Assembly (NCBI GenBank): GCA_034437715.1
Contig: DAOTTR010000524.1
Coordinates: 8,987 to 72,986, forward strand
DNA length: 64,000 nucleotides
Source of the DNA: Caldilineaceae bacterium
Lineage (GTDB): Bacteria; Chloroflexota; Anaerolineae; Caldilineales; Caldilineaceae
Reading direction: 5' to 3'
Shown here: positions 2,737 through 62,261 of the stretch, in pieces
Layout: each line of letters opens with the position of its first letter
How positions within the stretch are numbered: the first letter of the stretch is position 1
The notes under the pieces: generated by a model
What the model was told of the DNA's origin: nothing
Databases searched by the model: none
The model's input: the letters and a program-made list of their open reading frames with translations, nothing else
Position numbers and translations under genes: made by a program

Positions 2737-3810
2737 ATGAGTACGCCGATTCAATTTCAGCAAACGCCCTATGGCAAGGTTACGCTTGCCCCCGCGCCTG
2801 GCTTTAACCCAGCCAATTTTGCCATCCAGCCGATGCATGATAGTTATGGCCGACGCATCAACTATATGCGCATCAGTTTGACTGATGCCTGCAATCTGCG
2901 TTGTGTCTACTGTATGCCTGAAGATATGACCTTTCGTGCGCGCCAGGAATTGATGACAGACGAAGAGTTGTTGCAACTGGTGCGCGTGGGGGCTAGTCTT
3001 GGCGTCAACAAGATTCGCTTAACGGGCGGTGAACCGACCATTCGCCCGCATGTGGTTGACATTGTGCGCGGGATTGCCAACACGCCGGGTATCAAAGATC
3101 TGGCAATGACCACCAATGGCATCCTGCTCGATAAGCTGGCCCAACCGCTGGCGGACGCTGGCTTACAACGGGTGAATATCAGTATCGACACGCTAGATGC
3201 CGAAAAGTTTCACCGAATTACCCGTTGGGGCAACATTGATGAACTCTGGCGGGGAATTCGGGCAGCAGAAGCCGCTGGCTTAACGCCGATCAAGCTGAAC
3301 AGTGTGGTCGTGCGCAACTTTAATGACGGCGATGATATGGTGCAGCTGGCGCGACTTACGCTGGAAAATGACTGGGATGTGCGCTTTATTGAAATGATGC
3401 CGTTTGGCGAAATCACCGATTTCCAACAGACAAATGTAGTTACCTTCCAAGAAATGCGTGCACAGATTGAAAACACATTTGGCCCGCTCGAAGAAGCTGG
3501 CTATGATTATGTGGATCCCAGCCGGCCTTTCCGTATTCCTGGAGCAATGGGGACACTTGGTTTTATCAGCAGTGTCACCGAGCCTTTCTGTCAAGGCTGT
3601 GGTCGTGTGCGTCTAACTGCCGACGGGAAATTGCGCCTCTGTCTGTTGCGCGATGATGAAGTTGATTTGTTGACACCCCTACGCGCTGGCGCAAGCTTCG
3701 AGGAATTGCGCGTGATCATGCGCGATGGCGCGTTCCACAAGCCGTGGGGCCACGGTCTTGCCGACGGTGTCAGTAGTGGCAAGCGCGCCATGAATCAAAT
3801 TGGTGGCTAG
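2737..3810 (+). CDS. moaA: GTP 3',8-cyclase (molybdenum cofactor biosynthesis protein A)
   Basis: Radical SAM motif CNLRCVYCMP, TGGEPT, and a C-terminal CxxC...C auxiliary cluster (FCQGCGRVRLTADGKLRLC). Typical MoaA length of 357 aa. Confidence 0.9.
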   Translation: MSTPIQFQQTPYGKVTLAPAPGFNPANFAIQPMHDSYGRRINYMRISLTDACNLRCVYCMPEDMTFRARQELMTDEELLQLVRVGASLGVNKIRLTGGEPTIRPHVVDIVRGIANTPGIKDLAMTTNGILLDKLAQPLADAGLQRVNISIDTLDAEKFHRITRWGNIDELWRGIRAAEAAGLTPIKLNSVVVRNFNDGDDMVQLARLTLENDWDVRFIEMMPFGEITDFQQTNVVTFQEMRAQIENTFGPLEEAGYDYVDPSRPFRIPGAMGTLGFISSVTEPFCQGCGRVRLTADGKLRLCLLRDDEVDLLTPLRAGASFEELRVIMRDGAFHKPWGHGLADGVSSGKRAMNQIGG

Positions 3811-3916
3811 ATTAGCCTGAGCAATGCCCTAGATGATAGAAATTTGCCCACATTGAATCTAGTAATCCATTATCATTTATGCGCGATTGCGGTATACTTG
3901 TAGATGTAAGCGATTT

Positions 3917-3963
3917 ATGGATGGTATAATACAGATTGCAGAATAGTAAATCCATACATTCTG
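3917..3963 (+). promoter_or_regulatory. candidate promoter/operator upstream of the IscA-like gene
   Basis: Extended -10 TGGTATAAT (3922-3930). The ATCCAT/ATGGAT hexamer occurs three times (3865, 3917, 3950). Inverted repeat CAGAAT-N13-ATTCTG lies at 3939-3963. Confidence 0.35.
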
Positions 3964-4024
3964 TAATAACCAATATAAACTTTCACAAACTTTTCGTTTT
4001 ATCTTGTTAAGAGGAGTTCGCAGA

Positions 4025-4399
4025 ATGATTACGATTACAACAAATGCTGCTGAAAAACTAGGCGGGATCTTGGGTCAAAAGGGTCTCAAGAATACCCATG
4101 GTCTGCGCGTCTTTGTCAAAGGCGGCGGTTGTGGCGGTATGCAGTACGGCATGACATTTGAAGACACCACCCGCGAAGGCGATGAAGTGTACGAGCAGGA
4201 TGGCATGCGTGTCTTTGTTGATCCCACCAGCTTGTTCTATGTGGATGGTGCCAACATCGACTATGTGGACAACCTGATGGGTGGCGGTTTTCATATCGAC
4301 AACCCGAATGCCACCAGTTCCTGTGGTTGTGGCAGCAGCTTCCGCACGGCCCAATCGCACAATGGCGAGGAAACCGCAGCCAAGAGCTGTGGTCACTAA
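4025..4399 (+). CDS. iron-sulfur cluster insertion/carrier protein, IscA/ErpA/HesB family
   Basis: MITITTNAAEKL start with SD GAGGAG 8 nt upstream. Conserved Cys pattern (GGCGG ... SSCGCGSSF). The track start at 4004 is a likely over-extension. Confidence 0.85.
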   Translation: MITITTNAAEKLGGILGQKGLKNTHGLRVFVKGGGCGGMQYGMTFEDTTREGDEVYEQDGMRVFVDPTSLFYVDGANIDYVDNLMGGGFHIDNPNATSSCGCGSSFRTAQSHNGEETAAKSCGH

Positions 4400-4420
4400 G
4401 TAAGCGTGGTCTGTGACGAA

Positions 4421-4456
4421 AGCGAGTAGAGAATAGCTCTCTACTCGCTTTTTTTG
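4421..4456 (+). terminator. rho-independent terminator
   Basis: Perfect 11-bp stem AGCGAGTAGAG/CTCTACTCGCT followed by T7. Confidence 0.8.
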
Positions 4457-4529
4457 CAGAAGTCACGGCATCATTTATCTGTTTCTACGGTCTCCTCAAT
4501 TTCATGGCTTATTAGAATATAATTTTGTT

Positions 4530-13701: not shown

Positions 13702-15312
13702 TTACGGCCTGAAATCGACTTCTTCATCGCGGTTGTGGCGCGGGCGATGGACGAGGGTTTCAGTGGTCAACGCCATGAGTGCGCCGCTGACGCCGATCTG
13801 CAAGGCGGATTGGAGCACGCGCACCGGGTCCACAATATGCACAGCCATCACATCGACCATCTGCGCGTTCAGCACATCAAAGCCAAAGCCATTGTGCGCG
13901 GCGAGCAGTTGCGCTAGGATCGGGCCCGGTTCGAAACCAGAATTGCGCAGAATCGCTTGCGTCGGGGCCATGAGCGCGCGCCGCATAATCGCAATGGCCG
14001 GCGCTTCGTCCTCGGGCAGTTCGATGCGGTCGAGCGCAGCCAAGCAGCGCAGATAGGCAACCCCACCGCCAGGCGCAACGCCATCTTGCAGTGCCAACCG
14101 CAACACACTGACCGCCTCTTTGGCGCGCGCCTTGAAATAATCGCGCTCACTTTCGGTGGCGCCGCCAATCTCCAGCAGGGCCACCCCCCCCAATAACTTG
14201 CCACTGCGCTCGATCAGGCGGTCGCGGTCGCGGCCCGGTTGCGCTTTGGGCAACAGGCTGCGCAATTCCTGATGGCGCTGACGAATCGCTGCGGGACGCC
14301 CCTTGCCGCCAATAATCGTAAAGCCAGAGCGAATCGCCTGCACCTCGTCGGCCAGCCCCAAATCGGCCAGCGTGACCTTGCTCAGCGAATCGGCCAGGAC
14401 CGCTTGAATCACTCGTCCACCGCACAAAACGGCCAGATCCTGTAGAATGTCACTTTTTTCGGAACCCAACCCCGGCGCCTTAATAGCAAGCGTGGGCAAC
14501 ACCTTGCGCACATGGTTGGTTACCAGCAGATTGAGTGCCTCGCCGGTGACCGAGGGCGCAATCACCACCAGCCCGCGGTCGCCCGCACTGCGCACCAGGT
14601 TGAGAATGGGCAACAGTTGGGCCGTGGCGTTGAGTTGGTAATCGGTAAAGAGCAGATAGGGCTTTTCCAACACCGCTGTGCCCGGTTGATTGGTAAAATT
14701 CGAGGAGACCCAGCCCTGATTCCAGAAGGTGCCTTGAATATAGCGGCGCTCATGAATGCGCGCATAGCTTGTCCGCACATCGATTGAGCCATGTGGGCCC
14801 ACTGTGTCAAAGACTTCTTCGAGCAGCCGCCCCAGCGTTTCATCGCCCGTGATGGTGCGGCCCAAGGCCGCGATCTGTGCAGCCTGCACCAGCGGATGCG
14901 CCTGTGCCGCCAACGCATCTAGCACAACCGGCAAGAGTTTTTCCAGCCCGTGCGCCACGCGCATCAAATTATACCCTGCCGCGGCATGGCGATTGGCTTC
15001 ATTGAGAATTTGGCGGGCGATCACAACGGCGGTGGTGGTGCCGTCACCCACAGCTTCTTCGACGCGCCAGGCAATATGCCGCGCCAAGAAGGCGCCCATT
15101 GTTTCAAAGCGATTGGGCAAGCCCGAAAATCGGCGGGCAATCGTCGCGCCATCGTTGAGAAATTCGGGTGATTTGCGCGGATTATCATTGGCTAACGCGA
15201 CCAATCTGCCCTGTGGACCCAGGGAAACTTCCATCAAATCGCTCAATAGGTTAAAGCCACGGCTCAAGGCCTGGCGGGCGGCAGGTGGAAAAAGTAAACG
15301 TGGCTGCTTCAT
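13702..15312 (-). CDS. divergent group I chaperonin (GroEL/Cpn60) paralog
   Basis: Aligns by eye to GroEL from the N-terminus (AARQALSRGFNLLSDLMEVSLGPQGR, GDGTTTAVVIA, VDPVRVLQSALQ). No GGM tail. No adjacent groES. ATG 15312 was chosen over the track start 15363. Confidence 0.8.
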   Translation of the reverse strand: MKQPRLLFPPAARQALSRGFNLLSDLMEVSLGPQGRLVALANDNPRKSPEFLNDGATIARRFSGLPNRFETMGAFLARHIAWRVEEAVGDGTTTAVVIARQILNEANRHAAAGYNLMRVAHGLEKLLPVVLDALAAQAHPLVQAAQIAALGRTITGDETLGRLLEEVFDTVGPHGSIDVRTSYARIHERRYIQGTFWNQGWVSSNFTNQPGTAVLEKPYLLFTDYQLNATAQLLPILNLVRSAGDRGLVVIAPSVTGEALNLLVTNHVRKVLPTLAIKAPGLGSEKSDILQDLAVLCGGRVIQAVLADSLSKVTLADLGLADEVQAIRSGFTIIGGKGRPAAIRQRHQELRSLLPKAQPGRDRDRLIERSGKLLGGVALLEIGGATESERDYFKARAKEAVSVLRLALQDGVAPGGGVAYLRCLAALDRIELPEDEAPAIAIMRRALMAPTQAILRNSGFEPGPILAQLLAAHNGFGFDVLNAQMVDVMAVHIVDPVRVLQSALQIGVSGALMALTTETLVHRPRHNRDEEVDFRP

Positions 15313-15325
15313 ATTTGTTTTGGCT

Positions 15326-15358
15326 GATAAAAACCGCCTGAGCGCGGCCCAGGCGGTT
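15326..15358 (-). terminator. intrinsic terminator-like hairpin about 15 nt upstream of the GroEL-paralog ATG
   Basis: Minus strand reads AACCGCCTG-N9-CAGGCGGTT followed by TTTTAT. Confidence 0.6.
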
Positions 15359-15390
15359 AGCATACTCGAGTATGATTTTTATAAAAAGGT

Positions 15391-15615: not shown

Positions 15616-17433
15616 TTATTTCGCGTTTTCCTTTGCCTTGGCAACGCGCAACGCAATATGCAGCTCGGCCAACTGGGCGTCGGTTACGGGGCTGGGTGTG
15701 TCCAACATCAGGTCGGTACCCGCGGCGTTTTTGGGAAAAGCGATCACATCACGAATGCTGGCCGTTTCGGCAAACATGGCGACGAGGCGATCGATGCCCA
15801 GCGCAATGCCGCCATGCGGTGGCGCGCCATACTGAAAAGCTTCGAGCAAGTGACCAAATTGGGCGTCCACTTCGGTTTTTGCCATGCCCAACATGGCAAA
15901 AAGGCGATCTTGCAGATCGCTGCGGTGGATACGAATGCTGCCACCGCCGATCTCCCAGCCGTTGAGCACCACATCATAGGCTTTGGCCAGCACGCTGCCA
16001 GGATCGCTTTCGAGCTTGGCCCAATCGGCGTCCAGCGCGCTGGTAAACGGGTGATGGACGGCGTACCAGCGCCTATCCTCTTCGTTGTACTCCAACAGTG
16101 GAAAGTCTACAACCCAGCAGAAAGAGAGTACTTCATTGTTGATCACTTTGGCGCGGCGCCCCACTTCCAGCCGCAGGTTGTGCAAGCTCTGTGCCACCAC
16201 GGCGGGCTTGTCCGCCACCAGCAAAATCAAATCGCCAGCCTGGGCACCGCTGGTGGCAATCACAGCGCGCAGCGTTGCGGGCGACAGGAATTTGGCAATT
16301 TGACTGCGCAATGCCGCCTCGGCATAATTGCCCGTGGCGTCGGGTGCGCCGGTCACGCCGATCCACGCCAAGCCTTTGGCCCCATATTGCTTGACAAAGT
16401 CGGTCAGTTCGTCGATCTCGCGGCGGGGCAGGCTCGCGCCGCCCGGGTAAATAATGCCCTTGACTTGGCCGCCACCCGCCAGCGCATTCTTAAAGACGGC
16501 AAACTCGCTGTCGGCGACGATCTCGCTTACGTTGAAGAGGGTTAGGCCAAAGCGCAGATCGGGCCGGTCGATGCCATATTTATCCAACGCCTCGGCATAG
16601 GTGATGATCGGGAAAGGCACTGTTTGAATCGGCTTGGCCCCCAACATCTGACACAAATCGATGAGCAGGCCTTCAATCAGCGCACGGATATCGTCGGCCT
16701 CGACAAAGCTCATTTCCAGATCGAGCTGGGTAAATTCCAACTGGCGGTCGGCGCGCAGATCTTCATCGCGGAAACAGCGGGCAATCTGGAAATAGCGTTC
16801 AATGCCAGCCACCATCAACAACTGCTTGAGTTGTTGTGGGCTTTGGGGCAGCGCATAAAACTCGTGGGGGTGTAGGCGGCTGGGAACAATAAAGTCGCGC
16901 GCGCCTTCTGGCGTGCTCTTGAGCAGGATCGGCGTCTCGATTTCCAAGAATTCTTGATCGGAAAGGAATTCGCGGATAAAGCGCACAATGCGGTGGCGCA
17001 AGGTGAGGTTATGCACCATGCGTGGGCGGCGCAAATCAAGATAGCGGTACTTCAAGCGCAGCGCCTCGTCAACCTCTTCGGCAGAATCAGCAATGTAGAA
17101 GGGTGGATTTTTGGAAGGATTGAGAATCACAACGGTGTCGGCAATCACTTCAATATCACCCGTGCTCAGGTTGGCATTTTCCTGGCCGGTGGGGCGCGCT
17201 TGCACCACGCCCTGCACTTGAATCACATATTCGCTGCGCGCCTGCTCGGCAAATTCATGGGCAGCGGCATTGGCCACAGAATCCACCGTCACTTGGGTAA
17301 TGCCAAAGCGATCGCGCAGATCAAGAAAAATCAGCCCTCCATGATCGCGTCGCCGATTAATCCACCCGGCCAAGGTTACGCGCTGCCCCACATGGGTGCG
17401 ATTTAATGCGCCACAACTATGCGTCTTTAACAT
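15616..17433 (-). CDS. aspS: aspartate--tRNA ligase
   Basis: Full-length bacterial AspRS. It has the N-terminal OB fold ([22 protein letters not shown]), class II motifs ([19 protein letters not shown]) and the bacterial insertion domain. Confidence 0.95.
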
Positions 17434-17908
17434 GCGTTATTCCTTACTCAATTTTCGTTCTGATAATCAATCAAAGCCCGTGCAATAAAGATCAAGACCT
17501 GGGTAACCGGTTTTTATCAAAACCGGTGGCTGGCGATTGCAATAGGGTTTACGCACTTGGTTAGCCCTGTAGGGTCTTAAAGACTCTACAGATTTCCTGT
17601 GAAGCTACGTGTATGTTGCCACTACGTACGCAGCGAAGATCGAGCACCAAATTCTTACTGGCGCCTGATCCGCAAAAAATTTAGCTGCGCATACCAACGC
17701 ACACCAATGCGCATTGAAGCGCATTGGTATTTAGCACATTCTAGCACCTGTGCAGCATTATAGTCCGGTCGGCACGGCGATGCAATTCTTCTAGGCTGCA
17801 TACACCATGATGACTTAGCGGCTTTACACAATTACGCGGATTTACATAAGTCGTAATTCCGTATACAATAAACAAACAAAATTGTAAGTCAACAAAAAGG
17901 GAACCCCC

Positions 17909-18475
17909 ATGGAAAACACGTACCCACCGGTTACGAATACCCATCATTTGGCGAGTGCGACTGATTCGGCTGACAAGATAGAACGGATTCGCGATCTACT
18001 CTTTGGTCCCCAAATGCGTGACTATACACAACGCATTGCTGCCATCCATCAAGAGTTGCGTACGCTTACCCAAGAGACAGCGCGACTCGCTATGGTGATC
18101 CAAGAGCAGGAAGATAAATTTACCGGATTACTGCGCCAAGAGATTGATCGCCTGGCCATGCAACTACAAGATCAGGGCAAGCGCGCTCAACAGCAGTTGC
18201 AACAAGTAGACTACCGCTTAACCGAACAGTGGAAAGCGCTAGATCAAAGCCATACCCAAAATCTCAATGAGGTGGCGCAGGGCCTTGTGCGCACAGAACA
18301 GATCCTACGCACAGAATTGCATGATCTGTCACAAGAACTTAACCAGCGCAAAGTGGACCGCCCAACACTTGGCGATCTGCTGATCGATCTGGGGCAAAGC
18401 CTAAAATCTACAGCGCCGCCCCCCTTGCCAGTGGAGGAAGATCTGCTGGATCAATTGAGCCAAGCGCTGGCATAA
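17909..18475 (+). CDS. coiled-coil protein with N-terminal RDLLFG motif
   Basis: 188 aa and Q/L/E-rich with heptad character. The motif IRDLLFG is shared with the next ORF. Confidence 0.6.
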   Translation: MENTYPPVTNTHHLASATDSADKIERIRDLLFGPQMRDYTQRIAAIHQELRTLTQETARLAMVIQEQEDKFTGLLRQEIDRLAMQLQDQGKRAQQQLQQVDYRLTEQWKALDQSHTQNLNEVAQGLVRTEQILRTELHDLSQELNQRKVDRPTLGDLLIDLGQSLKSTAPPPLPVEEDLLDQLSQALA

Positions 18476-18490
18476 CCGAGGATTTGATCA

Positions 18491-19426
18491 GTGCCCACCC
18501 ACCCAGTTGCCCAGCAGAATGATCCGAGCCCAGCCCAACCGGACTTTGCCGCGCCAAGCGCGGCCGCGGTCCCGATCGTGCTCGACATGCCTGGGCAAGC
18601 AAACAGTGAAGATGCCACCATGGAACTCCTGCGCGACTTGCTCTTTGGCGACTATCGCCAGCAAGTGGCGCGGATGCGGGCGGAGGTCAACGAATTACAA
18701 TCGTTGCTCGACGAACTTGAAGTGCAGATCAACAACAAAGAAGCGTTGGTGGCGACGATCACGCCGGTGATTGCTTCGGCGATCCGCACCAACATTCGCG
18801 ATTCGCAGAGTGAAATGGTGGACGCGCTCTATCCCATTCTGGGGAAATTGGTGCAGCGTTCGGTCACCGAGTCCATGCGTGAGCTGGCCCAGCGGATTGA
18901 TCGGCAGATGCGCAGAACGCTTAACATGAAAGATCTGCTACGCCGCCTGCTCGGTCGTCTACAGGGGCTTTCCGCCGCCGAAATGGCCATGCGCGAGGCC
19001 TTGCCCTTTCAGGTACACAACCTGTTTTTGATTCACCGCGAGAGCAGTCTGTTGCTGCTACACACGGCCCATGCCGCACAAGAAAACACTGATTCGGATC
19101 TGATCAGCAGTATGCTGAGTGCGATTCGCGATTTTACCGAAGATGCCTTGGGGCGCAGCGAAAAAGAAGAACTCAATCAGATTCAATATGGCGGCAAAAG
19201 TATTATCATTGAAGTGGCACATCTTGTCTATCTGGCGGCCACGATTGACGGTATTGAGCCACAAGGTTTTCGCGAGCAGATGCGCCAGACCATGATCGCG
19301 ATTGAGCATCAACATGCCAATCGGTTGCACAAATATGATGGCAATGCTGCGCCCTTTGCGCCGTCGGCAATGACGCTGGCCGCTTTGTTACGCTATGCAG
19401 AAGGACAACATGCCGCGAATCATTAA
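18491..19426 (+). CDS. coiled-coil protein with RDLLFG motif and a Roadblock/LC7-like C-terminal domain (tentative)
   Basis: GTG start with SD GAGGA 8 nt upstream. The C-terminal ~110 aa (VHNLFLIHRESSLLLLH ... SIIIEVAHLVYLAATIDG) have the alternating beta/alpha pattern of Roadblock domains. Confidence 0.6.
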   Translation: MPTHPVAQQNDPSPAQPDFAAPSAAAVPIVLDMPGQANSEDATMELLRDLLFGDYRQQVARMRAEVNELQSLLDELEVQINNKEALVATITPVIASAIRTNIRDSQSEMVDALYPILGKLVQRSVTESMRELAQRIDRQMRRTLNMKDLLRRLLGRLQGLSAAEMAMREALPFQVHNLFLIHRESSLLLLHTAHAAQENTDSDLISSMLSAIRDFTEDALGRSEKEELNQIQYGGKSIIIEVAHLVYLAATIDGIEPQGFREQMRQTMIAIEHQHANRLHKYDGNAAPFAPSAMTLAALLRYAEGQHAANH

Positions 19427-19471
19427 TTGTTATTGGGTGACGAGTAATGATTCCTTGAAAAGGGATAGACA

Positions 19472-19996
19472 TTGAATACATATAGCAAAAAAATTTGTTT
19501 GCTCGGCGATTTTGCCGTTGGTAAAACAAGCCTCGTCCGCCGCTTTGTCCACAACCGGTTTGATGACCATTATATTAGCACGATTGGCGCCAAAGTGAGC
19601 CGCAAAACCGTGATGGCACCGGGCAACAGTGAAGTGGCCGAGCTGACAATGATGCTCTGGGATCTGGCGGGCAGTCAGGAGTTTAGCACGGTCACAGCCA
19701 GCTATTTGCGGGGCACGGCGGGGGCCATTTTGGTCTGTGATATGACCCGCGCCGATACACTGGCGCATTTACCGCGCTATGCCGAAGACCTGACGAAAGT
19801 GGCTGGACCGGTGCAACTTGTGGTTGCGGCCAATAAGCTCGATCTGCCAGAACAACATCAAATTAGCAGCGACCAAGTTGCCGCGCTAGCCGCGACCTTC
19901 GATGCACCCTATTTCCTGACCAGTGCCAAGGTCGGCGAAGAGGTCGATCTCATGTTTCGGGAGTTGGGAAAATTACTTTTAGACCGCATTCGTTGA
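19472..19996 (+). CDS. small Ras/Rab-like GTPase
   Basis: G1 GDFAVGKT, G3 WDLAG, G4 NKLD, G5 SAK. 174 aa. Confidence 0.85.
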   Translation: MNTYSKKICLLGDFAVGKTSLVRRFVHNRFDDHYISTIGAKVSRKTVMAPGNSEVAELTMMLWDLAGSQEFSTVTASYLRGTAGAILVCDMTRADTLAHLPRYAEDLTKVAGPVQLVVAANKLDLPEQHQISSDQVAALAATFDAPYFLTSAKVGEEVDLMFRELGKLLLDRIR

Positions 19997-21189
19997 AAAA
20001 ATTATTTATGCTTGATACGTTTGTTGCGCAACTTATCTTACAAGAACGCCAAATTGCGTATGCGATTGCCGACCAGGCACTACGCCTGGAGCAAATCGGG
20101 GGGAGGCTGGATCTCTTCGAAAGTGCGGGGGTCTGTACCGCAGTTGGCGCATCGCTACTCGATCTCGCACGGGAACTGATTGGGTACGAAGATCAAGTAC
20201 AGGCGTTGCTCGCGGGCACATTGTCATCCTTTCAAGTAGCGATGGTCAACCGTGAGAACGCGGCTGGCGAACTATTCTATGTTACCCTGCACAATTATGC
20301 GTATCGTCGCGACAACGGTGCGGTGACCGGCATTCTGCATATCATCGAAGATGTCACGCTGACCGGAAAAAATAATCAGCACCTAACCCAACAACGCAAT
20401 GAACTCTTTTTGTTGTATGAACAGTTGCGCCGCGCCAATCTCAAATTAGAGGCAGCCAATGCAGAACTGCGCGCGCTAGACGCCTTAAAGTCCAAGTTTG
20501 TCTCGATTGCCGCACACGAGTTGCGTACACCGTTGGCTTCCATCCTGGGGTATATCGATTTTATCTTCAATGATCCAATCAGAACCTTGCATCCCGATCA
20601 CCAAGCAAGTGTTGACGTGATTGGCAAAAGCGCCAACCGCCTGCTGGCGATCACGAATAATCTGCTAGATGTGACAAGAATTGAAGCGGGCTATGTCGAA
20701 TTAACGCTCGGCAGTGTTGATCTGGGTAAAATCGTTGAAGAGATCGCCAGCCATTTTCGCCCAGAGTTCGAGCAAAAACAGCATACCTTCCGCATTGAAA
20801 AAGAACCCCGGTTGCCCTATGCCCTCTGTGACGAAGCGCGTACAATGCAGATCTTTAGCAATCTACTCAGCAACGCGATCAAATATACGCCAGACCATGG
20901 ACGCGTTACCGTGAGTTTGCGCTACAATCCCCAAAAAGATGTTATTATTGCCGCCGTGACGGATACGGGCATTGGCATTCCCGCCGCGGATCTACAAAAT
21001 ATTGGCAAAAACTTTTTTCGTGCCAGCAATGTTCACCTGTCCCGATCCAATGGCACGGGATTGGGCTTGAACATTACCCGTTCGCTGGTTGAATTACAAG
21101 GTGGCCGCATGTGGATCGAAAGTACCCTGGGTCAAGGCTCTACCTTCTATCTAACCTTTCCCATCGATGATGGCATTTTCTCGGCCTGA
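19993..21189 (+). CDS. soluble sensor histidine kinase (PAS/GAF-like N-terminus, HisKA, HATPase_c)
   Basis: H-box SIAAHELRTPL. N, G1 and G2 boxes (LLSNAIKYT, DTGIGI, GTGLGL). No TM segment. The TTG start overlaps the GTPase stop codon by 4 nt. Confidence 0.9.
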   Translation: MKKLFMLDTFVAQLILQERQIAYAIADQALRLEQIGGRLDLFESAGVCTAVGASLLDLARELIGYEDQVQALLAGTLSSFQVAMVNRENAAGELFYVTLHNYAYRRDNGAVTGILHIIEDVTLTGKNNQHLTQQRNELFLLYEQLRRANLKLEAANAELRALDALKSKFVSIAAHELRTPLASILGYIDFIFNDPIRTLHPDHQASVDVIGKSANRLLAITNNLLDVTRIEAGYVELTLGSVDLGKIVEEIASHFRPEFEQKQHTFRIEKEPRLPYALCDEARTMQIFSNLLSNAIKYTPDHGRVTVSLRYNPQKDVIIAAVTDTGIGIPAADLQNIGKNFFRASNVHLSRSNGTGLGLNITRSLVELQGGRMWIESTLGQGSTFYLTFPIDDGIFSA

Positions 21190-21258: not shown

Positions 21259-21300
21259 AGCCAGCGTATGGGTTTCTGGGGAAACCCATACGCTGGCTTT
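21259..21300 (+). terminator. rho-independent terminator
   Basis: 18-bp perfect stem AGCCAGCGTATGGGTTTC/GAAACCCATACGCTGGCT with loop TGGG, followed by TT. Confidence 0.75.
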
Positions 21301-22022: not shown

Positions 22023-22403
22023 TCACAAGAGAAAGCTTGCCAGATCCGCCCAGATTTTCGATAGCTCTGCCCAATAATGGACAATGACGGCAGCGACACC
22101 CAGCCAAAAAAGCCAGAAGATCACACCGCGCAACCGTCGTCCCCAACGCACCCAACGCAGGTAACGGTCGATTTTTGCCAGTGTTTCGCCCTGGCTAGCC
22201 TGCACAGCACGCAGCGCAGCCAACTCTTGGTTCATTGCCTGTAGCAGTTGTGTCTGTTGCGCCAACTGCGCGGCGACAGTCTCTATGGTTGCCACCCGTT
22301 GTGCAACTGGTTGTGCAACGGGTTGTGCAACGGGTGGCGCAACGGGTGGTGTGCGTCCCACTTGTGCCGTCGGTTGTCTTGCTGCGGAATTCTCAAAAGT
22401 CAT
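22023..22403 (-). CDS. membrane-anchored coiled-coil protein with (PVAQ)n repeat
   Basis: 126 aa. PVAPPVAQPVAQPVAQ is encoded by a 4 x 12-bp tandem repeat (22298-22345). A Q/L-rich helix is followed by a C-terminal TM segment (VIFWLFWLGVAAVIV). Confidence 0.45.
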   Translation of the reverse strand: MTFENSAARQPTAQVGRTPPVAPPVAQPVAQPVAQRVATIETVAAQLAQQTQLLQAMNQELAALRAVQASQGETLAKIDRYLRWVRWGRRLRGVIFWLFWLGVAAVIVHYWAELSKIWADLASFLL

Positions 22404-27147: not shown

Positions 27148-28149
27148 ATGGCCGAGCGGGCAATTATGGTGAAGACAGCAGGCTTGCGCAAATCGTTTAA
27201 GCGCGCCGACAGAACGTTGGTCGATGCTGTCAAAGATGTGAATTTGACGATCTATCAGGGCGAAATCTTTAGTCTGCTCGGGCCGAATGGGGCGGGCAAA
27301 ACCACGATGATTTCGATGATTAGCGGGTTGCTGCCGCCCACGGCGGGTGATGCCTTCATCGGCGGCCACTCGATTACCAAAGAACCGCTGGCCGCCAAAC
27401 GATTGATGGGCTTTATTCCCCAAGAGATTGCGCTCTATCCAGAACTCAGCGCCCGACAGAATTTGGTTTTCTTTGGCAAAATGTATGGCATGGCCGGTGC
27501 CGAACTGAATAAACGCGTCGATGAGGTACTCGAATTTATTGATCTCACCGACCGCCAAAAAGATCGCATCGATACCTTCTCCGGTGGCATGAAACGGCGC
27601 GTGAATATTGGCGTAGGGTTGATCCATCGTCCGCAACTGATCTACATGGATGAGCCGACGGTGGGCATCGATCCCCAAAGTCGGCGGCGCATCTTAGATA
27701 CCGTCAAACAGTTGCGCGACGAATATGGCATGACGGTGCTCTACACCACCCACCTGATGGAAGAAGCGCAAGAACTGAGTGATCGCGTTGGAATTATTGA
27801 TCACGGCGAGGTGATTGCGCTGGGTACCCAAGAGGAACTGACCCAGCGTGTGGGCAAAGATGATCGACTTGAATTTCTGATTGGCGAGCAACCTGTGCCA
27901 GATGCGGTGGTCGCGCAACTGCAGGCGACTGTGGCCGGCGTGTCGCAAGTGTTGATCACCCAACCAGAGCCAGGCGGGGTCGAGCAAACTGGGCAGATAA
28001 CCGTCTTTGCCAAACGCGGTCGGCGCGCTCTGCCCGATGTGATCAACCTGCTCAACCGTAGTGGCATCGATGTCCACGCTGTTTCCGTGCGCGAGCCAGA
28101 TCTGGAAGCGGTCTTCCTGGCATTGACCGGGCGTGCTTTGCGCGATTAA
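27148..28149 (+). CDS. ABC transporter ATP-binding protein
   Basis: Walker A GPNGAGKT, signature FSGGMKRR, Walker B LIYMDEP. SD GAGGA upstream of ATG 27148. Confidence 0.9.
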   Translation: MAERAIMVKTAGLRKSFKRADRTLVDAVKDVNLTIYQGEIFSLLGPNGAGKTTMISMISGLLPPTAGDAFIGGHSITKEPLAAKRLMGFIPQEIALYPELSARQNLVFFGKMYGMAGAELNKRVDEVLEFIDLTDRQKDRIDTFSGGMKRRVNIGVGLIHRPQLIYMDEPTVGIDPQSRRRILDTVKQLRDEYGMTVLYTTHLMEEAQELSDRVGIIDHGEVIALGTQEELTQRVGKDDRLEFLIGEQPVPDAVVAQLQATVAGVSQVLITQPEPGGVEQTGQITVFAKRGRRALPDVINLLNRSGIDVHAVSVREPDLEAVFLALTGRALRD

Positions 28150-28184
28150 TCGTTTATACTCAAATCACATTGGGAATTGGGGCC

Positions 28185-29669
28185 ATGCGTAAGATTTGGG
28201 CGATTGCGTGGAAAGAACTCTACCGAACATTGATCGACCGCAATTTGTTGTTGATTATGTTTGCGACACCGTTGGCGCTTTCGACGATCATTGGGTTGGC
28301 TTTTGGTGGCATCGGCGCAGATACACCAACGATTGCCAAGATTCCCGTGGCGGTGGTCAACCTGGATCAGGGGTTGGATGTCGGCGCGCTGACCGGGGGT
28401 GTTGCGCCCCTTTCGAGCACGCAGACGATCTCGTCAACGGCTGACGGTTTTTCATTCAATGTGGGCAATGTGATCGCCAGCATTTTGCGCTCCGAGCCGA
28501 TTACGGCTAGCAGCATCATTTCATCCGCGGGGACGAATGTCGATGTCACCGCGCTGACCTGCGACCTAGCGGTGGCAGATGAAGATGCGACGAATTTCCA
28601 AGGATCACTCGATGATCTCTTGACAACGACAGTGTTGCCCGATCCCGCGGCGGCACGACAGGGGGTGGAGCAGGGCGACTATGTCGTGGCCGTGATCATC
28701 CCCGCCAATTTTACCCAACGCTTTATCCCGACATTCAACGATGTAGCGAATAGCACAGTAGATGATCCAGCCAACACACTGGAAGTGTATGGCAACAGTG
28801 GGCGCGCGCTTTCGGCGGGCATTGTGCGCAGCATTGTGGAAAGCATTGTCAACCAATTGCTCCAGGTGACGATCACCTTAGAAGCCTCGCTTGAAACCCT
28901 CTTGGACACGATTGATCTGACGCAAATGGATAGGACCGCGCTGCCGGCGCTGCTAACCACTGGCAACACCGACACCTTCGCCGTGCTGGGTTGTCTCTTT
29001 CAGCCGGGCATCAACCCGATCCGCTTGCAACAACAACCGCTTGCCGCGCGGCAAGCGGGCAATCGTTTTGCAATGATATTGGTAGCAGTTGGTTCAGCGC
29101 AAGCGGTTTTCTTTGCCCTTTTTACGGGCGTCTTTGGCATTCTCTCGATCTATGAAGAACGCAAACAGGGCACCTTGCAGCGCATGTTGGTTTCGCCAAC
29201 GACAGGCACGACCATTCTGCTGGGCAAATTGCTGGGCAATGTCGTGGTCGTATTCGTACAACTGTTGATACTCTTGCTGGCGTTGACCTTGATCGCCAGT
29301 GTGATCCTGGGCACGCCGACCTTGATCTGGGGATCAAATCTGCTTGCGCTCCTTGGGGTACTGCTGGCTCTGAGCCTCTGCGTTTCCGGGATTGGCGTTT
29401 TGATTGTGGGGCTGGCGCGCACGCCAGAACAGGTGCAGGTGATCGGGCCCATGGTCAATATGGGGATGGGGGTCTTGGGCGGTGCTTTTGGTTTTGGCTT
29501 CTCTTCTGCCGTTTCTGGGTTTTCGCTGATTTACTGGGGTGTGGATGCCTTCCAAAAACTTGCCGCCAACGAAGGTGAAATTGGACTCAACCTGCTGGTT
29601 TTGGTGGGGCAGGGACTTCTCTTCTTTTTGCTGGGTAGTTGGTTTTTCCGCCGCCGCTTGAATTTATAA
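28185..29669 (+). CDS. ABC-2 type transporter permease with large extracytoplasmic loop
   Basis: N-terminal TM segment, a ~270-aa loop, then 5 C-terminal TM segments (ABC-2/NatB-like topology). Confidence 0.8.
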   Translation: MRKIWAIAWKELYRTLIDRNLLLIMFATPLALSTIIGLAFGGIGADTPTIAKIPVAVVNLDQGLDVGALTGGVAPLSSTQTISSTADGFSFNVGNVIASILRSEPITASSIISSAGTNVDVTALTCDLAVADEDATNFQGSLDDLLTTTVLPDPAAARQGVEQGDYVVAVIIPANFTQRFIPTFNDVANSTVDDPANTLEVYGNSGRALSAGIVRSIVESIVNQLLQVTITLEASLETLLDTIDLTQMDRTALPALLTTGNTDTFAVLGCLFQPGINPIRLQQQPLAARQAGNRFAMILVAVGSAQAVFFALFTGVFGILSIYEERKQGTLQRMLVSPTTGTTILLGKLLGNVVVVFVQLLILLLALTLIASVILGTPTLIWGSNLLALLGVLLALSLCVSGIGVLIVGLARTPEQVQVIGPMVNMGMGVLGGAFGFGFSSAVSGFSLIYWGVDAFQKLAANEGEIGLNLLVLVGQGLLFFLLGSWFFRRRLNL

Positions 29670-29796
29670 TGTAGAATGTAACGATTCCGCCGGGAAAGCG
29701 CCCAGGGGGCTCTCGATCCTGGCGGCAACAATTGGCTCGCCGCCAGAATGGCGGCGTTCCTAGGGTGAAATTATACTTTGGTCTCGATTGTAACTT

Positions 29797-31062
29797 ATGC
29801 GCATAATCCTGAATATCGCCCTCAACGACTTAACCATCTTTTTTCGTGACCGCGGCAATTTGATCGGCTTGGTGATCCTGCCGGTCGCGTTGACGCTGGC
29901 AGTGGGCTGGGCCAATCGCGGCGGCAACAATGGTCCAACCTATCTGCTGGTGGATGTGATTGATCGCGACCAAAGCCCACTTTCCCTTGAATTGCTGGAT
30001 CAACTGCGGCTGGCAAATGAAACCTTGGTGCTCTGTCCCCAGGACAACGATGGCGATGATCGTTGTGGCCTGGGCGATGTGCCGTTGGATCAAGCCCTGG
30101 GCATAGAACGGGCGCAGGGGGAGAATACCGGCGGGTTGCTGATCATTCCGGCGGGCTATGGCGTAGCGGTGACCAGTATGCAATCTGTGCAACTTGACTA
30201 CTATTCCACCGATGATCCCGCGCTGCCTGGGTCGGTTCGCCAAGCGGTGGAGAATGTGTTGCAGCGCGTCAATCGCAGTGCCGTGACGGCGCGCGTGGGC
30301 GCGCGCCTGCTGACCAGCCTCATGCCGCAGTTGCGCGCCGATGCACAAACGGCGACGGGGCAAAGTTTGGAAGCGGCGGTTTATCAACAAGCCGAACTGC
30401 GCCTTGCCAACCGTCCACCCGCGGTGCGTTATGTCACAACCAAAGGCGATGCACCTGCGATCAGCGGCGTCCAGCGTGGCTTTGGCCAATCTGTGCCGGG
30501 CATGAGTACGCTCTATGTGATCTTCACCGTATTGGGCGGCACGGTGGTCTTGTTGCGCGAGCGGCGTCAGTGGACATTGCAACGGCTTGGCGCGCTGCCC
30601 TTAACCCGTGCCCAGATTCTGGGCGGCAAAATTGTCACCTATTTCACACTGGGCATGATTCAATATGGTATTGTCTTTGGCGCGGGGTTGGCGGTAGGGC
30701 TGGACTTGGGCAATCATTTATTGGCCATGTTGGCGCTGATGATGGCCTTTGCCCTCTGCATGACGGCGCTGGCATTGGCGCTCGCGACCCGTGTTGCCAG
30801 TGAAGGCCAAGCCAATGGCCTGCGCAACCTGATCGGCCTGACGCTGGCCCCTTTGGGTGGGGCGTGGTGGCCGTTGGAAATTGTGCCCACCTTCATGCAG
30901 CGCATCGGTCACCTGTCACCGGTAGCCTGGGTTATGGATGGCTTTCATAAACTGATCTTCAACGGAGCCAGTTTTGTGGATATCCTGCCCGAAATTGGCA
31001 TCTTACTGGCGATTGCGCTGGTCTTTTTCGGCATTGGCATTCGCGGTTTTCGGATTCAATAG
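29797..31062 (+). CDS. ABC-2 type transporter permease
   Basis: Same topology as the preceding permease. It reads LRERRQWTLQRL where the preceding permease has YEERKQGTLQRM. Confidence 0.8.
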   Translation: MRIILNIALNDLTIFFRDRGNLIGLVILPVALTLAVGWANRGGNNGPTYLLVDVIDRDQSPLSLELLDQLRLANETLVLCPQDNDGDDRCGLGDVPLDQALGIERAQGENTGGLLIIPAGYGVAVTSMQSVQLDYYSTDDPALPGSVRQAVENVLQRVNRSAVTARVGARLLTSLMPQLRADAQTATGQSLEAAVYQQAELRLANRPPAVRYVTTKGDAPAISGVQRGFGQSVPGMSTLYVIFTVLGGTVVLLRERRQWTLQRLGALPLTRAQILGGKIVTYFTLGMIQYGIVFGAGLAVGLDLGNHLLAMLALMMAFALCMTALALALATRVASEGQANGLRNLIGLTLAPLGGAWWPLEIVPTFMQRIGHLSPVAWVMDGFHKLIFNGASFVDILPEIGILLAIALVFFGIGIRGFRIQ

Positions 31063-53884: not shown

Positions 53885-55098
53885 GAAAAATCTGGTTGGT
53901 CGCTAGCGCCACCTATTGGCGGCGGGTGCGTTCCAGTGCCTTTCTCGTCTTGACCTTGGCGCTGCCGTTGGTGATGGTCGTGGCCGGGTCTGTGCCTTTT
54001 TGGCTTGCCACACGCGAACAGGGTCTGACTACGCTGGGGGTTGTTGATCAAACGGGCAAGCTGGCCGCGCTTTTTGCTGAACCATTGCCAGGGGATGCCA
54101 ACGCAGAACCAGGGTTGGCGTTGCGCGCCTTTGCCGATATCGAGGCCGCCACCGTCGCTAGCGCCAGCCGTGCGATCGACGCCTTTTTGGTGATTCCACC
54201 CAATTATTTTACGGGCACACCCCCCATTTTCTATGGCACAGAGCGGCTCAACGATCGCTGGGAGGCTGCCCTGGATCATCGGTTGCGGCGTGCCCAACTG
54301 CCCGATGCACCAGCGTGGCTTCTGGCACGCCTGGCTGAGCCCTCGGTGCGCACCTATGTCGCACGCAACAGTGGCGTGCGCGTGCCCCAAGGCCCGTCCC
54401 TGCTGATCCGCATCTTCTTTCCGGGGGCGCTAGGCTTGGCCTTTGCGTTGGTGGTCTTTACCGGTGCTGGCCAAATGGGGGCCGCCATGGTGCGCGAGAA
54501 AGATCAGCGCGCACTAGAGATGGTGATCACCTCGCTGTCGGTGCGCGAACTATTGATGGGCAAGGTGCTTGGCATGAGTCTATTGAGTCTCACGCAGATG
54601 GGGATATGGCTGTTGGGCGCGCTCATCGCCGCGGCGCTGGCGTTTTGGGGTGACTTGGCCGTGGGCGCGTGGAGCATCTCTGGACAGGCTGTGTTGTGGG
54701 CAGTCTTGCTCGGTGTGCCGGGTTATCTCTTATATGCTGTATTGGGAGCTGGGCTGGGCATCATTGCGGGTGACGGGCAACAGGCACAGCAGTTGGCGGG
54801 CATGCTCAGCTTCTTTGGGTTGGCACCACTCTGGCTGTTGGGATTGGTTGCGGGCGAACCGAATGGGCAGTTGGCGGTCGCGCTCAGCCTCTTTCCGCTG
54901 ACCGCACCCACCCTCAATCTTTTCCGCATGGCGCTGACCCCTGTGCCGACCTGGCAATTGAGTGCAGCCCTGGGCCTGATCCTGGTGAGTCTATTCGTCA
55001 GCACCTGGTTTGTGGCGCGCATCTTCCGCAGCGTGATGTTGCTGTATGGTCAGCGTATTCGTCCGCGTCAGGTGTGGCAGGCATTGCGTAGTGCATAG
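53881..55098 (+). CDS. ABC-2 (NatB-like) transporter permease
   Basis: ATGA start/stop overlap with the ATPase gene. One TM segment, a large loop, then 5 TM segments. Confidence 0.8.
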   Translation: MRKIWLVASATYWRRVRSSAFLVLTLALPLVMVVAGSVPFWLATREQGLTTLGVVDQTGKLAALFAEPLPGDANAEPGLALRAFADIEAATVASASRAIDAFLVIPPNYFTGTPPIFYGTERLNDRWEAALDHRLRRAQLPDAPAWLLARLAEPSVRTYVARNSGVRVPQGPSLLIRIFFPGALGLAFALVVFTGAGQMGAAMVREKDQRALEMVITSLSVRELLMGKVLGMSLLSLTQMGIWLLGALIAAALAFWGDLAVGAWSISGQAVLWAVLLGVPGYLLYAVLGAGLGIIAGDGQQAQQLAGMLSFFGLAPLWLLGLVAGEPNGQLAVALSLFPLTAPTLNLFRMALTPVPTWQLSAALGLILVSLFVSTWFVARIFRSVMLLYGQRIRPRQVWQALRSA

Positions 55099-55128
55099 AA
55101 ACTTGGCTATTGTAAGCAAAGGGAGTCA

Positions 55129-56403
55129 TTGGCATTGAACAAGACGCTTCTAGTGGGCCTGCGTGAATTTCGCCAACGGATCCGTTCCCGTGGGTTTTGG
55201 CTGGGGTTGCTGGGGTTGCCAATGACCTTTCTCATTATCTGGGCAGTCACCACCATTTCTAATGCCGAAATACGGTCGGCCCCACCGTCGCCCATGTCGC
55301 CCATGCCAGCGCGCCCGCGCAACACGATCATCGTGACCGTTGGCTATGTGGATCAGGCCGATCTGATTCAAGGCAGACCAGCAGATGCAGCGGTTGGCCG
55401 TCTGACCACGCGCTTTAGCGCATTTCCGGATACCGCCAGCGCCGAACGATCGCTGCGGCGTGGCACGCTGATCGCCTATTATGTGATCGCGCCAGATTAT
55501 CGCACAACCGGTGCTGTGGAACGTGTGAGCCACCAACTGCCGGCGATTGCCGCGCCATTGGATGCTGAACAATTTGATCAAGTGTTGCTTGCCAATCTGT
55601 TGCCCCACCTGGATGATGGCGAGCGTACACGCCTGCGCCGTCCCTTCAATGGCGGTAGCCCGACCTTTGTGGATGTGAGCGCAAGCCAGATGGCGACAGG
55701 CGAGCCAGGGGATCTGAATTTTCTGCCTTTCTTGGTGACCGTTTTGATTATGACGCCGCTCTTTACCAGTGGGAGCTATCTGTTGCAGAGTCTGTTGCAA
55801 GAGAAAAGCAGCCGGGTGATGGAAGTCTTGTTGCTGTCACTGCGTCCCACCCAACTACTCACGGGCAAGCTGTTGGGCCTGAGTTTGCTGACCTTGGTGC
55901 AATACCTGATCTGGGCTGTTTTTGGCTGGCTTGTCTTCGCCGCCGGTAGAACCGATTTTACGACCACCCTGGCTACGAGCAACTTGTCCACGGCGGATTT
56001 GGGCTTGTTCCTGCTCTATGCGTTTGGTGGCTATCTACTCTATGCGACCGTCATGGCCGGAATTGGGGCCTTGGCGCCCAATTTGGAGAACAGTCGCGCG
56101 TGGGTCTTTATTGTGAGCCTGCCAATTTTGATTCCCTTTTATTTGTGGACCGTGATTGTAGCGGCACCCGATGACCGCCTGGCTACGACGTTGAGTTTGG
56201 TGCCTTTTTCTGCACCGGTTGCCATGTTGTTGCGCATTGGCGTGACAACCGTTCCCCTTTGGCAACATGTTTTCAGTCTAACGTTGCTGGCGCTGACTGG
56301 ACTGGGGGCCGTTTGGCTGATGGCGCGTCTCTTTCGGGCGCAAACGCTACTCAGCGGCGAGTCGCTTTCCCTACGGCGCGCATGGGCCGCCTTGACCACC
56401 TGA
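55129..56403 (+). CDS. ABC-2 (NatB-like) transporter permease
   Basis: TTG start. Same topology as the preceding permease. Confidence 0.75.
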   Translation: MALNKTLLVGLREFRQRIRSRGFWLGLLGLPMTFLIIWAVTTISNAEIRSAPPSPMSPMPARPRNTIIVTVGYVDQADLIQGRPADAAVGRLTTRFSAFPDTASAERSLRRGTLIAYYVIAPDYRTTGAVERVSHQLPAIAAPLDAEQFDQVLLANLLPHLDDGERTRLRRPFNGGSPTFVDVSASQMATGEPGDLNFLPFLVTVLIMTPLFTSGSYLLQSLLQEKSSRVMEVLLLSLRPTQLLTGKLLGLSLLTLVQYLIWAVFGWLVFAAGRTDFTTTLATSNLSTADLGLFLLYAFGGYLLYATVMAGIGALAPNLENSRAWVFIVSLPILIPFYLWTVIVAAPDDRLATTLSLVPFSAPVAMLLRIGVTTVPLWQHVFSLTLLALTGLGAVWLMARLFRAQTLLSGESLSLRRAWAALTT

Positions 56404-56550
56404 CCAAGGCTTTGCCGCCATCCGGCGGCGTTCCCAGGCGTGAAAACCGCGGCATGAAGCGTTACCTTTTTTATGGCTGGATATGCGACTGGATCAGGTT
56501 TTTGTGTTAGGGTAGTATAGTTTTACTACGAGAAGGAAAGGGGGGAAATC

Positions 56551-62004: not shown

Positions 62005-62261
62005 GGTGTGCTTCCTCTTTGGGTATGATGGTTTGTCAGATGGTATGGGGATCCGACTGCAGTTGAGCACTGCAGCGCGCATAGCATACTCGGAATTGAG
62101 GGAGCACGCAAACCGCCATTCTTGACCTTTACCCCTGGCTCGGATACGCATAGCCTGCGCTTTTGGTTGCCAGATGATGCAAGTCATGGTATTGTTTCCA
62201 GCCAATTCAACGGTAGTATTCAAAACTTGTTTTACAATAGTATCTCTTTGGAGTTTCGTTG

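Follow-up and report, generated by a model that had tools for sequence, protein, structure and literature searches.

A four-gene module in a Caldilineaceae bacterium is very probably a soluble variant of the Group 1 Rup GTPase system

Do four tightly packed genes for two coiled-coil proteins, a small GTPase, and a histidine kinase in a Caldilineaceae bacterium form a new kind of signaling module, or do they belong to a system already described? The genes occupy positions 17909–21189 of a 64,000-nucleotide stretch of contig DAOTTR010000524.1 (assembly GCA_034437715.1), referred to here as the window, and an initial annotation made from the sequence alone had proposed that they could be an undescribed GTPase-gated system. 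The open reading frame (ORF) listing confirms the coordinates given there and places all four on the + strand: gene A (17909–18475) codes for a 188-residue cytoplasmic coiled-coil protein with no Pfam family; gene B (18491–19426) for a soluble 311-residue protein with a coiled coil and an α/β domain that is predicted to be longin/Roadblock-like; gene C (19472–19996), with a TTG start, for a 174-residue small GTPase; and gene D (19993–21189) for a soluble kinase with a PAS–signaling helix–HisKA–HATPase_c arrangement, 398 residues long from TTG 19993 or 393 from ATG 20008. A and B are separated by 15 nt, B and C by 45 nt, and C and D by 0 or 11 nt depending on the start of D, and the description of the genes as tightly packed therefore stands. 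The claim that they constitute a new kind of system does not hold.

The relevant precedent is the work of Wuichet and Søgaard-Andersen (2014, Genome Biol Evol; PMC4316618), who defined the Rup family of prokaryotic Ras-like GTPases, including Group 1 Rup. The parts of a Group 1 Rup system are a cytoplasmic coiled-coil protein termed DUFY, a protein with a DUFX domain, a Rup GTPase without the glutamine of its G3 motif, and an output protein, which is a histidine kinase or a GGDEF/EAL protein whose N-terminal region carries an invariant glutamine (PMC4316618). A transmembrane helix and an OmpA domain that binds peptidoglycan often come after the DUFX domain, and Table S2 of that paper gives DUFY>DUFX>Rup orders in Bacteroidetes, Chloroflexi, Cyanobacteria, Nitrospirae, and Proteobacteria (PMC4316618). 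A tblastn search with B against plasmids identified genes annotated as 'OmpA family protein' in Nostoc flagelliforme and Mesorhizobium (E 4e-41 and 7e-33), each within a neighborhood of hypothetical protein, OmpA family protein, Rab family GTPase, and output; the Nostoc output is a hybrid kinase and the Mesorhizobium one an adenylate cyclase. This gene order is identical to the DUFY>DUFX:OmpA>Rup order of Table S2 (PMC4316618), and the match of B to the Nostoc DUFX:OmpA protein has an E-value of 4e-41.

All the features of a Group 1 Rup system are found in the window: a Rup-type GTPase lacking the G3 glutamine, a DUFY neighbor, a DUFX domain, and an output with an invariant glutamine. The absence of a transmembrane helix and an OmpA domain from B is no bar to membership, since these are only 'often' present under the published definition. 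We therefore regard the module as very probably a Chloroflexota (Caldilineaceae) Group 1 Rup system with the order DUFY>DUFX>Rup>output, an assignment made by homology of the predicted proteins. The proposal that it was undescribed is accordingly not borne out, the same architecture having been published in 2014 with Chloroflexi among its hosts (PMC4316618). The correspondence extends to the gene order, the four homologous components, the missing G3 glutamine, the invariant output glutamine, and the Chloroflexi hosts; however, the DUFX protein of the window lacks the transmembrane helix and any OmpA, BON, or SH3 ectodomain, and the order Rup>DUFY>DUFX given in 2014 for Chloroflexus and Roseiflexus differs from the DUFY>DUFX>Rup>histidine kinase order of Caldilineaceae and Anaerolineae (PMC4316618). 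An adjoining OmpR-type regulator and a longin/Roadblock fold for DUFX, both described below, are not met in the available text of that paper (PMC4316618). We found no later paper on the system and no experimental study of it in a literature search by Rup name and by the 2014 locus tags, although this absence is not proof.

Two features of the plasmid loci may be recorded here. The Mesorhizobium sp. WSM1497 plasmid encodes an adenylate/guanylate cyclase output with the same N-terminal domain as D (L087:8429–9499); in its main text, the 2014 paper mentions no outputs other than histidine kinases and GGDEF/EAL proteins (PMC4316618). On the Nostoc flagelliforme plasmid pNFSY07, the Rup-associated N-terminal domain is a separate 176-residue 'hypothetical protein' (L086:7099–7629) whose ORF overlaps the start of a 622-residue hybrid kinase called as 'ATP-binding protein' (L086:7611–9479), and the two look like a frameshift or a split call of one output protein. 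The DUFY gene of this plasmid is preceded by a large gene for a response regulator.

The GTPase is the most readily classified component. C matches Pfam Ras (6e-37) and Roc (1e-27), its G1–G5 motifs are intact, and the four motifs cited when it was first called a bona fide small GTPase (GDFAVGKT, WDLAG, NKLD, and SAK) are all present, so that this description is upheld. The closest solved structures by sequence are eukaryotic Rabs (Rab21, 4.5e-26), and in the Rab21 alignment the position of the catalytic Gln61 of Ras/Rab is taken by Ser68 (codon at 19673–19675, + strand; WDLAGS vs. WDTAGQ). Serine occupies this position in 65 of 80 C orthologs, with Gly, Asn, Thr, or Glu in most others, and glutamine is not among the five commonest residues listed for it. 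C shares 39–43% identity with the 'Rab family GTPase' of the Nostoc and Mesorhizobium DUFY>DUFX:OmpA>Rup loci (E 3e-43 for the Nostoc Rup), in which the corresponding residue is S and E, respectively. By similarity, C is thus a Rab-like GTPase of the Rup clade with serine in place of the catalytic G3 glutamine, outside the MglA clade.

Protein A gives only weak coiled-coil-type matches and belongs to no Pfam or NCBIfam family, but it is homologous to the proteins encoded just before DUFX:OmpA in the Mesorhizobium (E 5e-11) and Nostoc (E 3e-6) loci, and gene A is found upstream of B in 79/82 of the Chloroflexota loci compared below. Its family has conserved motifs at the N terminus (R+R++.+G..+R) and at the C terminus (K+.R..L). 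A and B had been described as RDLLFG coiled-coil paralogs, and the N-terminal motif is real: residues 24–53 of A (IERIRDLLFGPQMRDY..., 17978–18067, + strand) and residues 44–69 of B (MELLRDLLFGDYRQQV..., 18620–18697, + strand) align by BLASTP with 13/30 identities (E 8e-4), and hhalign of the A family against the B family gives 56 aligned columns (probability 83%, E 9e-6). The common pattern, [IL]R[DE][IL]L.G...Y..R, leads into a coiled coil, and L47 of the B segment is invariant in the B-family alignment; the proteins of the Nostoc and Mesorhizobium loci that correspond to A and B contain the same motif, with the DUFY proteins carrying IRDIILG and IRDLLFG, respectively. The likeness is confined to these ~56 residues and does not extend to paralogy over the full length, so that A and B share a module and the term 'paralogs' overstates their relationship. 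We infer that this common segment mediates either pairing of A with B or the binding of a common partner.

The C-terminal part of B is where the structural evidence adds to the published description. In an AlphaFold2 model built with 45 homologs, B has a disordered N terminus, two long helices (residues 39–81 and 83–142), an α/β domain, and a C-terminal helix. The α/β domain (residues 162–280; 18974–19330, + strand) has the order α-β-β-α-β-β-β-α, with helices at 162–170, 202–221, and 260–280, and strands at 174–182, 188–193, 230–233, 236–242, and 246–253; its predicted local distance difference test (pLDDT) scores, as means of 10-residue blocks, are 66–95 and mostly 81–95. This order agrees with that of the longin/Roadblock superfamily, an α/β sandwich (β-β-α-β-β-β-α, with or without an N-terminal helix) in which a five-stranded antiparallel sheet is flanked by a single helix on one side and by one or two on the opposite side, and the invariant residues of the B family are concentrated in this domain. 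When B was compared with the PDB using Foldseek, all matches at E<=0.001, and nearly all of the 50 listed, were members of the longin/Roadblock superfamily (probability 1.00), including AP σ subunits (σ-adaptins; 4e-5), the Rab7 guanine nucleotide exchange factor (GEF) Mon1-Ccz1 (8e-5), and the longin domains of Sec22b, Ykt6, and VAMP7, with a template modeling score (TM-score) to the target of up to 0.71 (Sec22b). TRAPP subunits, ζ-COP, LAMTOR/Ragulator, Rag C-terminal domains, and dynein LC7 were also matched, and longin-type matches were slightly ahead of Roadblock-type ones. The model and its Foldseek matches thus support a predicted longin/Roadblock-superfamily domain in the C-terminal ~120 residues of B, and the earlier suggestion of a Roadblock-like C terminus is borne out at the superfamily level.

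The B family is predominantly membrane-anchored. A transmembrane helix directly follows the longin-like domain in ~66/84 relatives, where a linker rich in Pro and Thr and an ectodomain of SH3 or OmpA type usually come next, and relatives recovered by profile carry BON+OmpA or SH3_3 domains; B itself and ~17 other relatives have neither helix nor ectodomain. B is thus a soluble minority variant by its predicted sequence, and this renders the whole copy of the system soluble. A cluster found in the family search (P0001) is 100% identical to B and has the same start, although an exact-sequence look-up of B returned nothing.

The fourth protein, D, has HisKA (1e-16) and HATPase_c (5e-28) domains in Pfam, and no 19-residue window of D, or of A, B, or C, reaches transmembrane hydrophobicity, in agreement with its designation as a histidine kinase without a transmembrane segment. 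Its AlphaFold2 model (44 orthologs; mean pLDDT 80.9) shows an N-terminal PAS fold, a long helix (residues 117–187) running into the DHp domain with His170, and a CA domain, and the full-length Foldseek matches include WalK and the LOV histidine kinase YF1 (4gcz). The predicted phospho-accepting histidine lies in AAHELRTPL (codon at 20515–20517, + strand; H170 in the 393-residue numbering, H175 in the 398-residue numbering), within an invariant H-E-L-R-x-P and the HisKA match. The PAS-like domain (residues 1–116 in the 393-residue numbering; 20008–20355, + strand) has the order α-β-β-(short helices)-α-β-β-β with block-mean pLDDT of ~73–93, and precomputed PAS_4 hits were present for about a third of the D orthologs. 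The N-terminal 154 residues alone retrieved a single fragment in the word-indexed search, and the full-length D query was used instead. This domain resembles the N termini of the Mesorhizobium adenylate cyclase (9e-5) and of the Nostoc 176-residue ORF (1e-4), and by sequence similarity it is a system-specific domain common to the outputs of other Group 1 Rup loci.

Immediately after this domain, at the start of the PAS-to-DHp helix, Q124 and N131 are invariant and Q128 is near-invariant (20377–20400, + strand; Q129, N136, and Q133 in the 398-residue numbering). Q124, which is invariant in the 44 D orthologs, is the counterpart of the 'invariant glutamine' described for the N-terminal part of the outputs (PMC4316618).

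The start of D bears on how it is linked to C. A GTTGA is present at 19992–19996, in which TTG 19993 of D overlaps the stop codon of C, and translational coupling had been suggested on this ground; the overlap hinges, however, on a putative TTG start. In public records the identical protein (P0266) is called from ATG 20008, which gives 393 residues and an 11-nt gap, and most D ortholog alignments start near residues 5–7. The overlap is therefore possible but not needed, and C and D are tightly coupled whichever start applies.

Conservation of the arrangement was assessed in 82 non-redundant Chloroflexota loci, in which A, C, and D were placed by tblastn. The order A-B-C-D on one strand is kept in ~72/82 loci, while the flanking genes vary among them, which argues that the four genes are selected as a unit and excludes chance adjacency; the synteny check proposed with the initial annotation thus came out in favor of the module, and the arrangement is also found in Cyanobacteria and Alphaproteobacteria. 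The exceptions are contig ends (L023, L033, L054, and L061), local rearrangements (L013, L015, L030, and L062), and missing matches to A (L081, L082, and L085) or C (L069). The closest public locus is in an uncultured Caldilinea sp. metagenome-assembled genome (L006; contig CAYMQA010000008), with 68–91% protein identity across the four genes. More widely, a word-indexed search with B gave 242 of 8,000 scored candidates at E<=1e-3, all unnamed, and an exhaustive profile search gave 5906 representative clusters (50% identity) at the same threshold. Among species-representative genomes, 453 matching stretches were confirmed as B relatives, and the 80 retained, to which the taxonomic statement applies, are all Chloroflexota.

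In some Anaerolineae, extra copies of parts of the module are present. L012 (2853–3362 and 4885–5379; 4135–4830 and 5441–6592), L014 (6886–7323), and L026 (7293–7661) have either a second Rup GTPase together with a second kinase or an additional free-standing copy of the PAS-like N-terminal domain of the kinase; these copies suggest local duplication of the Rup-output pair.

The absence of a nearby response regulator had been noted for the module, and it does hold for the window, where 51 response-regulator queries gave no receiver domain by tblastn anywhere in the 64 kb, and for its closest relatives. It is not true of the family. By tblastn coordinates, a conserved OmpR-type regulator lies directly upstream of A on the same strand in 49/82 loci; in 12/82, D is directly followed by a regulator gene, and a regulator adjoins the module on one side or the other in 55/82. 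The upstream gene codes for a REC domain and a winged helix (Trans_reg_C; ...QRILVVDDDPAI...TERGxGYRF), exemplified by L003:4824–5534 on the same strand as DUFY and found at the equivalent position, ~3300–4500, in 49 of the loci L003–L084. Most Anaerolineae and Caldilineae thus have a five-gene unit of the OmpR-type regulator and A–D; in the window and its nearest relatives (L001 and L005–L009), aspS takes the place of the regulator.

Since a regulator adjoins the module in 55/82 relatives but is absent from the window, the partner of D is probably encoded elsewhere. D is most likely, judging by these gene neighborhoods, a conventional phosphodonor whose partner regulator moved elsewhere in the clade of the window, whose copy is a soluble, regulator-detached variant of Group 1 Rup. 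Pairing of the kinase with a conventional regulator encoded elsewhere, independently of the GTPase, had been named as an observation that would speak against a GTPase-gated module; the regulator genes that adjoin the module in relatives, directly upstream in 49/82 loci and directly downstream in 12/82, go part of the way toward it. The kind of system is known already, whereas the longin/Roadblock domain of DUFX and the link to an OmpR-type regulator in Chloroflexota are likely to be new.

How might the parts work together? We propose that the longin/Roadblock domain of B would serve as a platform that sets the nucleotide state of Rup, as a GEF or a GTPase-activating protein (GAP), in the manner of MglB, Ragulator, and Mon1-Ccz1, and that A would associate with B through the common N-terminal [IL]R[DE][IL]L.G coiled-coil segment. 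Rup-GTP would then dock on the PAS-like domain and signaling helix of D and switch its autophosphorylation, and D would phosphorylate an OmpR-family regulator, adjacent in most relatives and encoded elsewhere in the genome of the window. In most lineages the input may come from the cell envelope through the B ectodomain; B is soluble in the clade of the window, and the input there would have to be cytoplasmic or relayed by another protein. These four steps, from B acting on Rup to D acting on an OmpR-family regulator, are put forward as a tentative chain that falls somewhat short of an even chance; identity as Group 1 Rup and the chain, taken jointly, we consider a reasonably probable account of the locus.

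Several points weigh against this account. For no Group 1 Rup system did we find measurements of interaction, GTPase activity, or phosphotransfer, either in the available text of the 2014 paper (PMC4316618) or in later literature, and B may be a GEF, a GAP, or a mere scaffold. Neither Pfam, NCBIfam, a phmmer search of the PDB, nor the family profile against the PDB gave a significant match of B to Roadblock or longin families, so that the fold assignment rests on predicted structure; moreover, the Foldseek E-values are moderate (4e-5 to 1e-2) and the TM-scores normalized to the target are 0.4–0.7. Canonical Roadblock and longin regulators act as dimers, and the operon encodes one longin/Roadblock domain only. 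The 64 kb contain no response regulator, so that the last step of the chain is a prediction for this genome. Finally, the 2014 authors put forward a different source of catalysis, in which the output protein supplies the glutamine missing in Rup (PMC4316618).

That proposal is the strongest rival. Here the kinase would be the GAP, with its glutamine inserted in trans into the active site of Rup, and B would be only a sensor or a scaffold of membrane or coiled-coil type. Beyond its having been put forward in the paper that defined the family (PMC4316618), it accounts for a Rup without catalytic glutamine alongside D orthologs with invariant Q124 and N131 and near-invariant Q128, and the N termini of the Nostoc and Mesorhizobium outputs share a Q-x-L-x-Q pattern. 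In the AlphaFold2 model, however, these three residues lie on the long PAS-to-DHp helix of D (H117–187), and such a helix would normally be buried in the parallel coiled coil of the kinase dimer. Conserved polar residues are common on helices of this type for structural reasons, which lowers our rating of the glutamine as a catalytic residue, and B, with its longin/Roadblock fold, would be a more conventional regulator. Both ideas could hold at once, and we consider the output as GAP unlikely.

A second rival would have A and B localize Rup to a pole, the septum, or the envelope, in the style of MglA/MglB/RomR, with the kinase as a secondary client. The ingredients fit: a Roadblock-type domain, a small GTPase, and coiled-coil partners, with peptidoglycan-binding OmpA or SH3 ectodomains in B relatives, and Group 1 Rup hosts include many filamentous or gliding lineages (PMC4316618). 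What speaks against it is that the fourth component is fixed, an output with the same N-terminal domain whether histidine kinase, cyclase, or GGDEF/EAL protein, and that a DNA-binding response regulator is usually adjacent; together these point to transcriptional or second-messenger signaling. The GTPase, with DxxG and Rab-like motifs, is also not of the MglA family. A spatial or polarity role is accordingly improbable, and we prefer the reading as a Group 1 Rup signaling system in which B acts on the GTPase.

The module might also be a divergent conservon of the actinobacterial type (CvnA–CvnD) or a true MglA/MglB pair, but both were tried and rejected, and together they are highly improbable. 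Their appeal is superficial, a parts list of a kinase, a Roadblock-like protein, and a small GTPase, although the likeness of the conservon CvnA-CvnB-CvnC-CvnD, including the Mycobacterium mfp locus, does extend to a four-gene unit of a kinase, a Roadblock-superfamily protein, and a Ras-superfamily GTPase, and an analogous mode of action for Group 1 Rup was proposed in 2014 (PMC4316618). None of the four proteins matches DUF742 (CvnC) or Robl_LC7 (PF03259) in Pfam even at E<=1. The conservon GTPase is of the MglA family, whereas C best matches Ras/Rab and is homologous to GTPases of the Rup clade; the conservon Roadblock is a small stand-alone Robl_LC7 protein; and the conservon kinase is membrane-bound, with HAMP and an LPxR tail, and encoded first, whereas D is soluble and PAS-bearing, ends in ...FPIDDGIFSA without an LPxR motif, and is encoded last. 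A conservon also has a DUF742 protein and no associated response regulator.

The MglA/MglB polarity switch (with RomR/RomX; Myxococcus and Thermus) likewise places a small Ras-like GTPase beside a Roadblock-superfamily regulator. However, MglB is a stand-alone Roadblock protein that acts as a homodimeric GAP, MglA is distinguished by motifs and a clade of its own, and the operon includes no kinase, whereas B is a coiled coil fused to a longin-like domain, with no sequence match to Roadblock or MglB, and C groups with Rab/Rup by similarity. The distinction of the module from the conservon had been drawn from the outset, and it stands: DUF742 is missing, the kinase has no membrane anchor, and the motifs of the GTPase are DxxG and Rab-like instead of MglA-type. 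That the four genes are functionally unrelated neighbors is the least credible reading of all, given the order kept in ~72/82 loci with differing flanks and the same arrangement in two other phyla or classes, Cyanobacteria and Alphaproteobacteria.

Comparison with better-studied proteins places B and D in a wider setting. Eukaryotic longin/Roadblock platforms, among them Mon1-Ccz1 for Rab7/Ypt7, TRAPP, Ragulator-Rag, and AP σ with Arf, provide the best structural matches of the B domain, and C is most Rab-like; they differ in having no detectable sequence homology to B and in acting as hetero- or homodimers in large complexes, and the window offers no membrane-trafficking context. Soluble PAS kinases such as FixL, YF1, and the cytoplasmic region of WalK have the same PAS–signaling helix–DHp–CA architecture as D, although in D the PAS-like domain is of a system-specific subfamily, one that accompanies Rup and also occurs in fusion with cyclase outputs. 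This domain showed no identifiable cofactor-binding signature.

Rup is the proposed prokaryotic root of the eukaryotic Ras/Rab GTPases. We raise, as a possibility that we hold less firmly than not, that DUFX is a cryptic longin/Roadblock GTPase platform and that the Rup branch is linked, after all, to the fold through which MglA, Rag, Rab, and Arf GTPases are regulated. If so, and given the proposed origin of Ras/Rab GTPases from Rup, the pairing of a Rab-like GTPase with a longin-like regulator would predate eukaryotes, and in bacteria it would couple envelope sensing to a PAS-kinase/OmpR two-component output. Rup GTPases have been characterized as uncoupled from MglB homologs, a trait that helped to define the branch in 2014 (PMC4316618); confirmation of the DUFX fold would remove the supposed divide between Roadblock-coupled (MglA) and Roadblock-free (Rup) bacterial GTPases and would provide a bacterial model for the regulation of a Rab-like GTPase by a longin platform. 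Group 1 Rup systems are widespread, with ~5,900 representative clusters for the DUFX family alone, and the copy in the window, a clean, minimal, all-soluble version with a 393-residue PAS-kinase, should suit biochemistry.

The four-gene block is flanked on either side by candidate expression signals, both of them consensus matches only. A sigma-70-like promoter site (TTTACA-17-TACAAT, 17841–17869, + strand) agrees with 10/12 consensus positions and lies 40 nt 5' of gene A, and a G+C-rich hairpin (21259–21298, + strand; 18 pairs, 10 of them G-C, with a weak T-tail) begins 70 nt past the D stop and is a possible operon terminator. On the opposite strand upstream of A are aspS (15616–17433) and then a gene of the Cpn60 family, and downstream of D are small ORFs, an alanine dehydrogenase gene, and hisS. 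A role in anti-phage defense was considered and rejected, PADLOC having given only weak matches of coiled-coil, P-loop, and ATPase type.

The Cpn60/GroEL-family gene (13702–15363, − strand) encodes 553 residues and adjoins aspS; the same pair lies upstream of the module in Caldilinea sp. CFX5 (L001), and it is thus part of the conserved local context of the clade. No tRNA genes, and no Rfam families at the gathering threshold, were found in the 64-kb window. An ORF at 22023–22403 (− strand) codes for 126 residues that include PVAQ repeats and a helical stretch rich in Gln and Ala, with a hydrophobic segment at the C-terminal end. L088 and L089, public records of this sequence, annotate the ORF as a gene, and no Pfam hit is recorded for it. 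Over the window as a whole, the AT skew, computed in 2-kb windows, is strongly negative (−0.15 to −0.19) at 28001–30000, 54001–58000, and 62001–64000, and ~0 elsewhere.

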